A stretch of 64,000 bases of DNA, taken from NCBI GenBank assembly GCA_016931455.1, contig JAFGES010000064.1, forward strand, positions 13,664-77,663. Reading direction: 5' to 3'. The translations under genes and the position numbers were made by a program. This stretch comes from Desulfobacterales bacterium. GTDB taxonomy: Bacteria > Desulfobacterota > Desulfobacteria > Desulfobacterales > JAHDSC01. Positions 6,801 to 11,536 of the stretch are shown piece after piece (position 1 is the stretch's first letter; every line of letters begins with the position of its first letter). Below the pieces are notes generated by a model that saw only the letters and a list, made by a program, of their open reading frames with translations, was not told the DNA's origin and did no database searches.

Positions 6801-8111
6801 ACGATCAGATGTTACATCTACTGGTTCCCAAAACGCAGCGGCGACAGGAGTACCGACAACTGTACCGGCCGGCGGTGCGCCAAACTCAGTCAAATGGACC
6901 AAATCAAAGTCAAAAGGAAACTCGACTCGATTGGCGTTATAGTCCGAATCATTACCCTTGACTTGGCGTCTGATAACAAAAACTTGTACACGGTGATTAC
7001 CGGCATCGGTTACCGCAAGCCATTCTTCACCGTCCACCTTACGTTCGTGTACGACAGTCAAACCTTGTGGAGAATCAAACTGCCCGCCGGCTGTGCCGGA
7101 AGCCCCGAAGTATCTATAAAACTTATAGCGTCCGTCGACTGACAGTGGGTGACCATCTTTCCAGTCCGGGCGGTAAATAACAATGCGGTCATTATCGGTG
7201 TCCGCAATAAACAAGTTACGATACTGATCTAAAGCAATACCCTTCGGATTCACCAAGCTAACACCTGATCCCGGTCCTGCGATGGTTTCTATATAAGTGC
7301 CATCTGGATAGAAACGCCGTACCTCGTTGCCATCGATCATAAACACAAAGCCATGGTGATCCACGGCAAGCGGTCCTGTTTGATTAAAACTGCCTCCTCC
7401 AAGCCGCGCAAGGGGGGCATACGGGACATCAATGTGTGCTTTGGGTTCAGTCGGCGCATTATCTAACGCACAAGGAACCGTCGGCCACACATCATAATAC
7501 GGGTATTGATCGTCTTCACCCACAGCGATGTTTTTGCTTTCACCGGGTTTGGGATTGGGGTTATAGCCAAACCCCTCTAGTGTATCGTCCGGATCCAACC
7601 AATCGAAGATAAATGCGTCATAGTCGGCCAAATAGACTTGCACGGTATCCTCAGGAACGGCAATGGGATTACGTTTTTTAGACGCACTAAAATCCGGGTA
7701 GGCAAACTTCAAGTGTGCGTGCAAACCCACAAAAATTTCCAAGGGTGCATTGGGATCGGTATAATCCGCGATGCGCGGGATACGCCGATTGTGATAATGC
7801 CGTGTGACCCATTCATCAGGCAGTGTTATTTGCTCATCGGCAGGCCCGGCAGCGGGCACGGTACGGTTGGCCTCCGGAATGGTTATTGTGAAAAACGGAT
7901 TCAGGCTGTTCTCTTCATCTTCATCAAAGGTAATTTCTACCTCCGCCACACCATTGTTGTTGGTGGTTGGTGTGCCGCTGGATAAATCAGGATCGTATAA
8001 AAATCGACTGTCTTCGCATAACAATTCTGCGCCGGGTACCGCGATCATATTACCTTGCGCCGGGTTATACGTGAGCACCTTGACGTAAATGGTTTCTGTT
8101 CTATATGCCAT
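3894..8111 (-). CDS. 1405-aa protein with about 12 NHL repeats (two six-bladed propellers), an MA-clan (gluzincin, Peptidase_MA_2-like) metallopeptidase-like domain and a C-terminal Ig-like region. Candidate CIS cargo or fibre.
   Basis: Repeated blades of the type PxGVAVD..xxLYVADxxNxRVxxF. HELAH is encoded at 5031-5045 with a downstream EGWAEY at 4893-4910. The start ATG overlaps the upstream stop (TAATG at 8111). Confidence 0.8.
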   Translation of the reverse strand: MAYRTETIYVKVLTYNPAQGNMIAVPGAELLCEDSRFLYDPDLSSGTPTTNNNGVAEVEITFDEDEENSLNPFFTITIPEANRTVPAAGPADEQITLPDEWVTRHYHNRRIPRIADYTDPNAPLEIFVGLHAHLKFAYPDFSASKKRNPIAVPEDTVQVYLADYDAFIFDWLDPDDTLEGFGYNPNPKPGESKNIAVGEDDQYPYYDVWPTVPCALDNAPTEPKAHIDVPYAPLARLGGGSFNQTGPLAVDHHGFVFMIDGNEVRRFYPDGTYIETIAGPGSGVSLVNPKGIALDQYRNLFIADTDNDRIVIYRPDWKDGHPLSVDGRYKFYRYFGASGTAGGQFDSPQGLTVVHERKVDGEEWLAVTDAGNHRVQVFVIRRQVKGNDSDYNANRVEFPFDFDLVHLTEFGAPPAGTVVGTPVAAAFWEPVDVTSDRDKCLYVCDQEWHRVSRWDFNAAGNSYAHQADWEKSGGGSGSSNREFDMPVAVAADTMNNTIYVADFNNQRIQRLDNNGNHLLNWNMGLSGPPTPIGVAVDPRSEVYAADGADQRVVRGTMFDPAGTAKADGDAPDSVGDPWTPISEPGHMFEPGYTYFDVDGKLWISDTGNNRVLIYNRNAAGELEPDSTPSITGLHKPVGIVKYETGDVFIADSNAHKILQYDASLTHVTDIGTGTAAGSNNDFNSPMGVCVAKQAEPVLYVADKNNNRVKYHKLNGDYVGSITTDGTRNLDNPEDVTVDADGHLYIADTDNARVLQFNLTMDGPVTTAPSFVREIRPRGMSFIKPCGVSLDEENKLIVTDREQDMIFRLESDGDVLAYWDMNNFVRQDADSGTDYYPELARLLRFNKPSRAAIDKQGLLAIADTQHHQVRLIRSYTQLKLNFFDIGQGVFEKLPDISFRVVGEADWRQSLGLEVDLDKELSTDPDENVARDQWDYQGLLSSEEFDSVIVNVLKVTRVFQKWFKKHSQAAAEERRWGTEDTAHSLNIDIEENSSFYALDVNLDRDEDGSPHGRGADGWDDAVVAHELAHWLFAKNTGPYPVQDLNFFRWIRISATHWGSLIHSYDLALSEGWAEYVMHFWGNHYGSTDRVRGYGFWGKSLLNIGEEDRPYERLFGGAANPPPDFDEPEKGLRNEGYFSNALYQIHRAISDTDVLFADSPAYWHGYNVPVNNDIATRFSNSIWKTLERFQDDPPFIDGGSRVFLTQLIDQFYNNVPQYAQIAQSIFELNNQLMPVLTVHEEIAPGDLSDALDEEFDLPVTVQKILVFKVTTAGGQPLEAYNLKIEILSGSASHYSLDPPGPSPAKRHGLETPASPPANELYRATDSDGYVKIKCLAPGGTGASELIKATYQPDFDHDETFAPPSAGDDHATTIRKLYLYELRAAAKVWSGTDNNFGALVSKQLEINIV

Positions 8112-11100: not shown

Positions 11101-11536
11101 CTACTAATGCGCCCGCGACACCTGCCCGGTCAGTGGGAATCGATTCGGATATGCCGGCGATGCCATTCAGCGTACTTTCTAATTGAGAAATAAAATCACC
11201 GGAGAAAATATTATCAACTTGTTGAATACGGCCTGTCATATCTTGCAACGCTTGCGTGGGAATGAGATCGCTTCCCGCTTGCAAGGATGAAAACACATCG
11301 GTGACGCCACCCAGAGCGGACCTAGCGTCAAAATCTAAAACGCCGGTAAGTTGTTGTGTGATCCGCCCGGCAAAATTATCAAAGCGTTGTTGCGGCGTGG
11401 TTGAAAATGCACCGGCAGCCCCTGCAAAACCGCTGGCCGGTGTACCGTCATCCCCGGCAACACCTAATAATCCCCCAATACCTTCCAACGCCGTCCGTAA
11501 CGTTGAGATATTAATGTTTAACGATCCTTCAGACAT
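8111..11536 (-). CDS. 1141-aa acidic, predicted all-helical repeat protein of unknown family. Tape-measure-like or scaffold candidate.
   Basis: Long uninterrupted ORF coupled to the next gene. Gly/Ala-rich N-terminus, D/E/L/Q-rich body and proline-punctuated 23-residue periodicity. Confidence 0.75.
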   Translation of the reverse strand: MSEGSLNINISTLRTALEGIGGLLGVAGDDGTPASGFAGAAGAFSTTPQQRFDNFAGRITQQLTGVLDFDARSALGGVTDVFSSLQAGSDLIPTQALQDMTGRIQQVDNIFSGDFISQLESTLNGIAGISESIPTDRAGVAGALVDQVIGVLMSMEGPEAETIQAWISSIQNLYREAMPLIEIAQSGDPAQTLVAAFQRSLTNTLNAFNYDAIKKVVDFTQTFPPKLILQDQLTGLPNVITTASTAFSDLQDVITSDFISFRNAVGSGMEALESINQELRPVVKTMNRIANAKLFQPNALENYLREQMNKALAVKVHEVQKIDDPFNALLDRIDEGIENIDLTFVRDEVLGFFDGLQENINSMDIPSIGDFLQQQMQPVSDAVNDLQQGVTDFLSQIEGFADNINDQLRNSLSAIGEFQPDGSFNYHIERDLQTLFENARKVIAGAPDNPGAFSLSGTLDELNSTINDLLNQVLVILQQVESTLSGVTAVAVGGINDFKDFVTGLNVPQLLETLKEKIKTILDELAPIEFDLIVDPIVAELDENTEKLRSVDVSSLNDLLKEALKLALDVVININFTTEISTPLREQFENVKAIPQSAIDSLQARYEQAISELDELSPTQLLQDLFSAFDVIENAVKNLTAASLLAPLDELHEQYIQQPFDKLTPSTLLQPVTDGFQDLTSVFDEISGSQLIEPLNTLLNDFKSRIDAFDITSWVDDLLNAVESVKQDLREIRPSEIFAPIVEDFERLESELDRFKPSIVFQPVVELATPLLAFLEDVQEATVQTLHSMFQIPLQALDQLQPEALTQKIQQHIDDVIDALNAVNVPARFNQLKGRFFDFKVAVEAQGNNAYLSMTYYVDPERKLGNVMRTYNGLVQSLESIKDNVVMPDLEALYTELQERLMGMLPPFARELLDTETFKRVMRLANPVRFLEELDERFEEIKNRLIPIRPEDITAELDETYDTVLALVDGLDIEDALNRVKDQINQVKAIASTIRVDFLAADIDNAVNNIKAVVEALDPARVTARLDILHGELAQVIDQTLPSTMLSGVDAILTQVQGIVESVDPETSLGEPLNQAWQAVVDALAGIDFTVVLQPLIDKLDELEQKFEQGLGRTETSFDQMLSAARAALSGSASASASVSV
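9150..9700 (-). repeat. Tandem 23-residue repeats (consensus h-x-P-S-x-h-h-x-P-h-x-x-x-F-x-x-h...) inside the 1141-aa ORF
   Basis: Consecutive units: LSPTQLLQDLFSAFDVIENAVKN / LTAASLLAPLDELHEQYIQQPFDK / LTPSTLLQPVTDGFQDLTSVFDE / ISGSQLIEPLNTLLNDFKSRIDA / FDITSWVDDLLNAVESVKQDLRE / IRPSEIFAPIVEDFERLESELDR / FKPSIVFQPVVE... Confidence 0.7.

Follow-up and report, generated by a model that had tools for sequence, protein, structure and literature searches.

The window analysed here, a 64,000-nucleotide stretch of Desulfobacterales bacterium contig JAFGES010000064.1, encodes among the genes of a contractile, phage-tail-like particle an acidic protein of 1141 amino acids (T), and the locus raises the question of what so long a chain does in such a particle. 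An earlier note on this DNA had listed a ruler, a scaffold, an external fiber and a cargo tether as its possible roles; that list remains right, and here its options are ranked. T is most likely an unusual length-setting protein, one that some bacteria fuse to a tube-ring protein. We assign a probability of about one half to the reading that T is the length-setting internal core protein (an atypical tape measure) of a P2/Mu-like contractile particle, forming one unit with Y, the 200-residue protein encoded just upstream of it.

The open reading frame (ORF) of T starts with ATG and spans window positions 8111..11536, as the earlier note had reported, and it lies on the minus strand, which corrects that note. 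Its stop codon overlaps by 1 nt the ATG of the next gene, which encodes a 1405-residue NHL-repeat protein. With 176 Asp/Glu and 77 Lys/Arg residues, T has a net charge of −99, and 4.3% of its residues are proline. The expectation that it is more acidic than typical tape measures is borne out by the charges of P2 gpT (+16) and Mu gp42 (+34). The tube protein and almost all other proteins of the cluster are likewise acidic (isoelectric points of 4–5), so that the acidity of T is partly a trait of the whole cluster. An AlphaFold2 model built on an alignment of 26 family sequences (mean predicted local distance difference test, pLDDT, 77; predicted template-modeling score, pTM, 0.38) contains 82% helix, distributed over 53 helices with a median of 17 residues and with breaks at prolines. 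The model supports the earlier description of T as helical and predicts that it is almost wholly so. T was found to have neither a transmembrane segment nor an enzymatic or toxin domain. The following regions can be distinguished along the chain:

10787..11536, minus strand: T residues 1–250, a conserved N-terminal region with a Gly/Ala-rich start and without 23-residue periodicity (lag-23 z = 1.3)
10259..10291, minus strand: T residues 416–426, a conserved non-helical insert, GEFQPDGSFxYH, predicted to form a β-hairpin (model strands 416–418 and 424–426)
9206..9757, minus strand: T residues 594–777, eight in-register 23-residue units punctuated by prolines, with invariant prolines (lag-23 z = 7.8)
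8237..8860, minus strand: T residues 893–1100, a second 23-residue block of the type '(L/I)DPxxhhxxL...' (residues 890–1100: lag-23 z = 6.9, lag-46 z = 5.1)
8114..8236, minus strand: T residues 1101–1141, a conserved C-terminal helix, GLxRTExxFDxML, and after it a small-residue tail (S/G/A/V)

Invariant residues fall in the N-terminal region (P134, L144, Q147, G157, E159, A160 and W166), in the insert (G416, D421, G422 and F424) and in the C-terminal region (E1104, E1115, F1118 and L1122), and a comparable tail ends the proteins of all subfamilies.

The 23-residue repeats of T are real. When the single sequence is autocorrelated with BLOSUM62 and compared with 500 shuffles, lag 23 reaches z = 8.2, followed by lags 46 (z = 5.0), 69 (z = 2.8) and 92 (z = 2.5), while lags 22 and 24 are negative, which makes the signal sharp. 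A profile of 26 homologues raises lag 23 to z = 10.5 and lag 46 to z = 5.9, far above chance, and self-alignment of the family profile yields off-diagonal matches with E values as low as 4e-19. The repeat prolines P618, P659, P665, P671, P734, P740, P757, P763, P770, P793 and P802 are invariant among 26 homologues with 37–86% identity. At least seven consecutive units had been proposed at positions 9150–9700, and we find eight in register at 9206–9757. The weaker copies proposed to continue towards the C-terminus stand as periodicity, residues 778–1141 giving a lag-23 z of 7.8 that is independent of the equally strong signal of the central block; they do not stand as copies of the same unit. 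A hidden Markov model (HMM) made from the eight central units found no further significant copies outside residues 594–777, so the repeat beyond this block is a looser periodicity that does not share its motif. Two distant homologues, P0186 and P0232, show the (L/I)DP-type units of the second block in very regular form. Residues 250–593 show a weaker signal at lag 23 (z = 3.3) together with one at lag 11 (z = 3.5). There is no 69-nt repeat in T at the DNA level, from which we take the repeats to be old.

These statistics bear directly on the idea that the repeat is a by-product of coiled-coil or low-complexity composition and T an unrelated passenger gene. The sharp lag 23 with its harmonics, its independent appearance in two segments, the invariant prolines and the synteny of T in all loci, across at least seven phyla, speak against such an artefact. 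Matches of T to unrelated helical families and to tape-measure PHROGs, which are driven by composition, would fit it. We regard this idea as refuted in practice.

Those matches also require care when T is compared with tape measures. T has no Pfam tape-measure match, and Pfam and NCBIfam return only sub-threshold matches to unrelated helical families; the composition-driven matches include Baculo_PEP_C, ATG17_like, DUF948 and tape-measure PHROGs. The best-looking of the last, phrog_1272 (tape measure, E = 1.6e-15), was rejected as homology: the reversed T sequence matches phrog_4200 (tape measure, E = 3e-8), T shuffled in blocks of 23 residues still matches phrog_1272 (E = 5e-8), and five of six homologues give no match. 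Because reversed and shuffled controls match too, the likeness of T to tape measures is one of composition and periodicity, not of collinear homology. A profile search of PDB sequences with T gave nothing below E = 0.019; at E = 0.044 comes the neck of DC-SIGNR, likewise built of 23-residue repeats, which we regard as no more than an analogy. Foldseek matches of the T model were set aside as uninformative (TM-scores of ~0.05), those in the PDB being generic α-solenoids and those in BFVD long helical proteins that include 'minor tail' proteins. A tblastn search of 50,697 phage genomes found no relative of T or Y, and a pattern scan and tblastn search of IMG/VR viral contigs found no relative of T. 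Scores of T against P2 gpT and Mu gp42, and of the T and Y profiles against Mu gp43 and P2 gpU, were about zero. Nor did Pfam, the PDB or the phage collections show clear homology to a known non-tail family, for which the earlier note had allowed.

Instead, T is a member of a large unnamed family confined to one type of phage-tail-like cluster. It has 27 near-full-length homologues, and an exhaustive profile search found 867 family representatives, clustered at 50% identity, at E ≤ 1e-3 and 169 at E ≤ 1e-30; the best 150 of the 867 were inspected, and the family alignment comprised 152 full-length sequences drawn from all sources. Among unfused full-length members (n = 143), the mean length is 1131 residues, with a standard deviation (SD) of 22, a coefficient of variation (CV) of 1.9% and a 5th–95th percentile range of 1101–1172, at a median pairwise identity of ~19%. 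One collinear subfamily, only 21–24% identical and including the protein of Teredinibacter turnerae, spans 1133–1175 residues with charges of −50 to −138 and a lag-11 z of up to 6.3. The T part remains at ~1100 residues even in lineages with a sheath of 555 instead of 360 residues. Two apparently shorter relatives, P0028 (835 residues) and L025 (795 residues), were rejected as such, both being halves of frameshifted genes of ~1140 codons. In two loci the T gene is split into two ORFs (L096, 9112–12508, 305 + 835 residues; L025, 3405–6805, 795 + 327 residues), which are probably frameshifts in low-coverage assemblies, or pseudogenes.

The gene upstream of T suggests a partner for it:

11612..12214, minus strand: Y, 200 residues, with a predicted tube-fold domain (residues 1–120), a PPPPPPP linker and two acidic helices (AlphaFold2 model, Foldseek)

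The AlphaFold2 model of Y has low confidence (pLDDT 59.6), and its top Foldseek matches are all tube-fold baseplate proteins (probability 1.0, E values of 5e-4 to 1e-2): diffocin CD1367, a phiCD508 needle/baseplate chain, the Mu baseplate chains 9ki1_0/u, PVC 6j0n_b and 9gtp_M from a Streptomyces contractile injection system (CIS). In this model Y resembles a tube initiator of the Mu gp43 type. The earlier note had placed a gp43-like gene upstream of T, and the tube-initiator and tube-fold baseplate chains matched by the model do include Mu gp43. At the sequence level, Y has no Pfam match and no similarity to DNA_circ_N (gp43) or gpU. It has 684 homologues, of which the best 120 are 67–92% identical and 194–204 residues long.

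In several bacteria, Y and T form one polypeptide. The exhaustive search found six T family representatives of 1266–1329 residues that carry an N-terminal extension of the size of Y. The four of these that were read (P0186, P0194, P0232 and P0284) all start with a Y-like domain and are in-frame Y–T fusions; P0204 and P0247, known from length and match offset, are probably fusions as well. BLASTP comparison of two fusions with the Y of the window gave 43% identity (E = 6e-41) and 39% identity (E = 4e-35). In the fusions, Y takes the place of roughly the first 18–35 residues of T, and two of them lie in the same type of cluster without a separate Y gene. The T of this genome carries no tube-fold domain of its own. 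Loci L094 (fusion gene at 8764–12678) and L095 (4791–8780) combine the fusion with a larger sheath (555–557 residues) and a smaller Baseplate_J protein (485 residues) and form a distinct sub-lineage of the same system. From the fusions it follows that T and Y act together, probably in a 1:1 ratio. A resemblance of the C-terminal tail of Y to T-type repeats was considered and rejected (hhalign probability < 2%).

Between the chaperone-like gene and Y lies a further gene, X, in the position usually taken by a tape-measure gene:

13355..13840, minus strand: tail assembly chaperone-like protein, 161 residues (PF10109 Phage_TAC_7, E = 1.7e-4, under the Pfam cut-off)
12211..13374, minus strand: X, 387 residues, polar and of low complexity, right after the chaperone-like gene (six X proteins aligned)

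Across lineages, the six X proteins range from 322 to 498 residues with up to 17% proline and are predicted to be disordered, and their composition tracks the GC content of the genome. Conservation is confined to the last ~22 residues (..ALVEQARRHGVDLS; D-A-I-x-x-I-V-N-x-A-L-V-E-Q-A-R-R-H-G-V-D-L-S) and, weakly, to an N-terminal helix. X would thus be an odd ruler, yet its conserved C-terminal helix is reminiscent of tape measures. Apparent X–Y fusions in L008, L022 and L040 were rejected as longest-ORF artefacts in high-GC DNA.

The properties of X and Y together raise a somewhat unlikely alternative, the main rival of the ruler, in which T is not lumenal at all. It would be an outsized helical continuation of the tube initiator Y, comparable on a larger scale to the helix-rich domain of Mu gp43, the C-terminal helix of P2 gpU or the pyocin ripcord. 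Six copies would lie on the baseplate or jut out from it as struts, trigger or fibers, and X would be the real tape measure; the copies of T may then carry the variable enzyme encoded just downstream. The model of Y best matches tube-initiator chains and reproduces the layout of gp43, with a tube-like domain, a flexible linker and helices. At least four divergent members, and probably six, carry Y as an in-frame N-terminal part of T; the corresponding C-terminal portion of the Mu and P2 initiators sits on the wedges of the baseplate, outside the tube. Y could equally be a terminator-like ring, since the pLDDT of its model is only 59.6, and no sequence similarity to gp43 or gpU was detected. 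An extension of 1141 residues would be three times the whole helical domain of gp43, and no LysM domain could be detected. With X as the tape measure, the order chaperone–X–Y(T)–...–hub maps one-to-one on Mu gp41–gp42–gp43–gp44, and the strongly conserved 22-residue C-terminal helix of X would be tape-measure-like; the low complexity, high proline content, variable length and predicted disorder of X fit a ruler poorly, and we know of no tape measure that is disordered and length-variable as X is. The coupling of the T stop codon to the start of the variable enzyme gene would suit a carrier arm. The α-solenoids among the weak Foldseek matches of the T model would also be in keeping with an external arm, but at TM-scores of only ~0.05. 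Covariation provides no clear signal of helix-hairpin packing. In the 152 aligned members, mutual information with average product correction (MI-APC) gives strong helical signals at i+3/4/7/11 and weak peaks at 16, 20, 23 and 27; aggregated per 23-residue unit, the map is not clearly above the null and does not tell an extended chain from a helix-hairpin solenoid.

For T as an internal ruler, we propose the following sequence of events. The chaperone-like protein would keep the long amphipathic T chain soluble. A ring of Y would hold T at one end, through a non-covalent link in this genome and a covalent one in the fusion lineages, and tube subunits would polymerize around T. The fixed chain of ~1130 residues, composed of short helices and proline turns, would then set the length of the tube, predicted at ~170–195 nm for 1.5–1.7 Å per residue. 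We infer the lumenal position of T, its action as a ruler, its orientation and its 6:6 stoichiometry with Y.

Several features are consistent with this role. T is the only long protein of the cluster that is predicted to be almost wholly helical, X being predicted disordered and variable in length. The narrow length distribution of T at ~19% identity, and its persistence at ~1100 residues alongside a 555-residue sheath, are what a ruler might be expected to show. T lies inside the tail-core block, in an order that parallels P2 FI–FII–E–T–U–D and Mu gp39–gp44. The Y–T fusions would tie T physically to a ring protein with the tube fold. By analogy with tape measures, the conserved C-terminal helix of T may act as an anchor. 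Diffocin CD1366 is the one tape measure traced in full, and part of its chain runs linearly through the lumen as short helices connected by turns; its 817 residues cover 1388 Å (1.70 Å per residue), and in Mu 690 residues serve 30 rings. Diffocin and Mu thus have ~23 residues per tube ring, a value that would equal the repeat length of T.

Other observations weigh against T as a ruler. It has no homology to any tape-measure family, whether by Pfam, in the PHROG controls, in the 50,697 phage genomes or against gpT and gp42. T is acidic, punctuated by prolines and built on 23 residues, whereas P2 gpT (lags 14 and 28) and Mu gp42 are basic and heptad-based and lack lag 23. The slot after the chaperone and before the tube initiator is filled by X, not by T. 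The C-terminal helices of Mu gp43 and P2 gpU are external to the tube and rest on the wedges of the baseplate. A T fused to Y would therefore begin outside the lumen, unless the linker passes back in or Y forms a ring of the terminator type. The length of T is nearly invariant (1131 ± 22 residues) and leaves almost no variation to compare with tail length. A narrow length range is also usual for ordinary folded proteins. At the junction of the chaperone-like gene and X, in which a slippery site was not sought in detail, no conserved programmed frameshift was seen: X overlaps in frame +1 in the window but in frame −1 in L001.

A more specific form of the ruler would have six tape-measure copies, each tethered by polyproline, or fused, to a tube-fold domain in the first or last ring of the tube, with one 23-residue unit for each ring of ~4 nm. 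The particle would then count discrete units aligned with its rings instead of gauging length along a featureless coiled coil, and ~37–50 rings around a hexameric lumenal core are predicted. We consider this form unlikely.

Also unlikely is the reading that T is a packaged passenger, either a tape-measure-like effector or a cargo tether, carried in or on the particle and expelled on contraction. Its amphipathic helices, punctuated by prolines and with an apolipoprotein-like periodicity of 11 or 22–23 residues, would then bind or remodel the target membrane. Tape-measure-related effectors inside a CIS are documented, as for Sle1 from Streptomyces lividans; Mu injects gp43, its analogue of Y, into the host; and the slot adjacent to T holds variable, payload-type enzymes. 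T shows a weak match to PF01442 (Apolipoprotein A1/A4/E), at 25.7 bits and E = 1e-5 for a cut-off of 90 bits, and the lag-11 periodicity of the divergent subfamily (z up to 6.3) would suit amphipathic helices of this kind. Effectors, however, are usually variable and patchy in distribution, whereas T is present in every locus, collinear and within 2% in length. Its lack of an enzymatic or toxin domain and of a transmembrane segment does not suit an effector, and a protein fused to a structural ring component is more likely to be structural itself.

The surrounding cluster is a P2/Mu-like contractile particle lineage, tailocin-like and not a classical extracellular contractile injection system (eCIS). 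The remaining cluster genes in the window are:

15483..16580, minus strand: conserved 365-residue protein upstream of the sheath (synteny), with a ConA/LamG-like C-terminal domain
14348..15430, minus strand: sheath protein, 360 residues (PF04984, PF17482; phrog_279, E = 3e-36)
13840..14334, minus strand: tube protein, 164 residues (position; weak PF18906 match; 67–96% identity across loci)
3894..8111, minus strand: 1405-residue NHL-repeat protein in the variable slot after T (PF01436 NHL, E = 5e-41), with HELAH (HExxH, zincin-like) at residue 1023
1..3793, minus strand: first ~1260 residues of a 1460-residue protein that runs off the left end of the window (PF01471 and PF13620 matches)

The full operon is seen in locus L004, the same sequence in another assembly. 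It runs from the 365-residue protein through sheath (360 residues), tube (164), chaperone-like protein (161), X (387), Y (200), T (1141) and the NHL protein (1405) to the 1460-residue protein, a 367-residue protein that is gpD-like (hub) in relatives, a gpV-like spike, PAAR, gp25, Baseplate_J and a propeller protein of at least 824 residues. This gene order is kept in 26 of 26 loci of the first two sets, wherever a locus reaches hub, spike, PAAR, gp25 and J, and related baseplate-anchored loci have the same layout. The chaperone-like gene follows the tube gene in all loci, and T is found in every locus between it and the hub, spike, PAAR, gp25 and J genes. The earlier note had judged T a tape-measure candidate by composition but not by position. 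It was right that T does not come immediately after the chaperone, where the slot belongs to X; the verdict was too strong, because the operon continues past the left end of the window to hub, spike, PAAR, gp25 and J, and T lies inside the tail-core block of the full operon.

The 365-residue protein matches levanase CBM66 (E = 7e-7), and PF06439 is found in three of eight members; from its position it may be a cap or terminator. The fusion lineages have only a protein of 186–200 residues in its place upstream of the sheath. The 1460-residue protein contains ~10 peptidoglycan-binding-like repeats (DVRxVQxRLxxLG) and a CarboxypepD_reg-like domain. The slot after T differs by lineage: T. turnerae has a protein of more than 2564 residues with a Peptidase_S8 match, further lineages have unknown proteins of 838–1018 residues, and L094 has a gene for an OmpA/PG_binding protein with genes for an amine oxidase and a Peptidase_M14 protein after it. 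This slot looks like a payload or enzyme position. Outside the cluster, in window positions 16700–64000, a pseudouridine synthase gene and an HD-domain gene adjoin it, and large ORFs lie at 32991–36527 and 36658–38571.

The hosts belong to at least seven phyla, comprising Desulfobacterota, Gemmatimonadota, Chloroflexota, Cyanobacteriota, Acidobacteriota and Actinomycetota together with the cultured gammaproteobacterium Teredinibacter turnerae T7901, and the cluster was not found in the phage and viral collections searched. In T. turnerae T7901 it lies around TERTU_3727, at 4.110–4.125 Mb of CP001614.2, and among Nodosilinea strains it is carried by sp. LEGE 07088. No AAA+ ATPase was seen upstream or in the 10 kb after Baseplate_J in L070, in loci that are only partly covered. 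The eCIS frame in which the earlier note had placed T does not hold, given the chaperone-like gene, the P2/Mu-like gene order and the absence of this ATPase from the regions seen. Surveys of CIS separate eCIS from phages and R-type bacteriocins by the Afp15/Cis15 AAA+ ATPase (PMC12210884); by this measure the cluster, in which none was seen, would fall among the phages and R-type bacteriocins and be passed over.

A search of the full-text literature found no prior description of the cluster, its tape measure or T. turnerae particles, and the lineage appears to be undescribed. If T is the ruler, a large tape-measure family, with 867 representatives at 50% identity, has been missed by current annotation models. 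It would combine a regular unit near the residues-per-ring ratio of solved tails with a physical link to a tube-ring protein, and would make it testable whether tape measures are read continuously or in register with tube rings. If T is an extension of the initiator and X the tape measure, the ruler of this system would be intrinsically disordered, and T would be a baseplate appendage of a new type. Either way, the host cluster represents a contractile particle lineage in at least seven phyla, including the culturable T. turnerae T7901 and Nodosilinea strains, that eCIS surveys would skip because they require the AAA+ ATPase.

Among known systems, classical eCIS (Afp/PVC) differ from the cluster in their Afp15/Cis15 AAA+ ATPase, none having been seen in the parts covered. 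Effectors of the Sle1 type from Streptomyces share with T a tape-measure-like character and a tie to a contractile injection particle; they are modular, with variable functional domains, and limited to Actinobacteria, whereas T has no functional domain, an invariant length and a distribution over at least seven phyla. The apolipoproteins ApoA-I, A-IV and E have tandem amphipathic helices of 22–23 residues punctuated by prolines, and the DC-SIGNR neck has 23-residue repeats; at 25.7 bits against 90 for PF01442 and E = 0.044 for DC-SIGNR, these are analogies of repeat architecture and not memberships.

Closer to Y and T together are Mu gp43, P2 gpU and the pyocin ripcord. Mu gp43 consists of a tube-like domain, a flexible loop and a helix-rich domain that reaches down onto the wedges, and the C-terminal helix of P2 gpU likewise runs onto the wedges. 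As in these proteins, the predicted tube-like domain of Y is followed by a flexible (proline) linker and a helical region, and in the fusion lineages the parts form one polypeptide. Their helical part measures ~30–370 residues against 1141 in T, and Y and T lack a LysM domain, are not adjacent to the hub gene, show no sequence similarity to them and are encoded here by separate genes.

The tape measures P2 gpT, Mu gp42, pyocin PA0625 and diffocin CD1366 differ from T in other respects. T is acidic (−99), punctuated by prolines every 23 residues and without sequence homology to them, gpT and gp42 being basic and heptad-based; two genes separate T from the chaperone, and T has a tube-fold protein as its partner or as an N-terminal fusion. 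Like T, these tape measures are long, helical and encoded between chaperone and hub, they have a conserved C-terminal helix, and the length of T falls within their range; the ~23 residues per ring in diffocin and Mu equal the repeat length of T.

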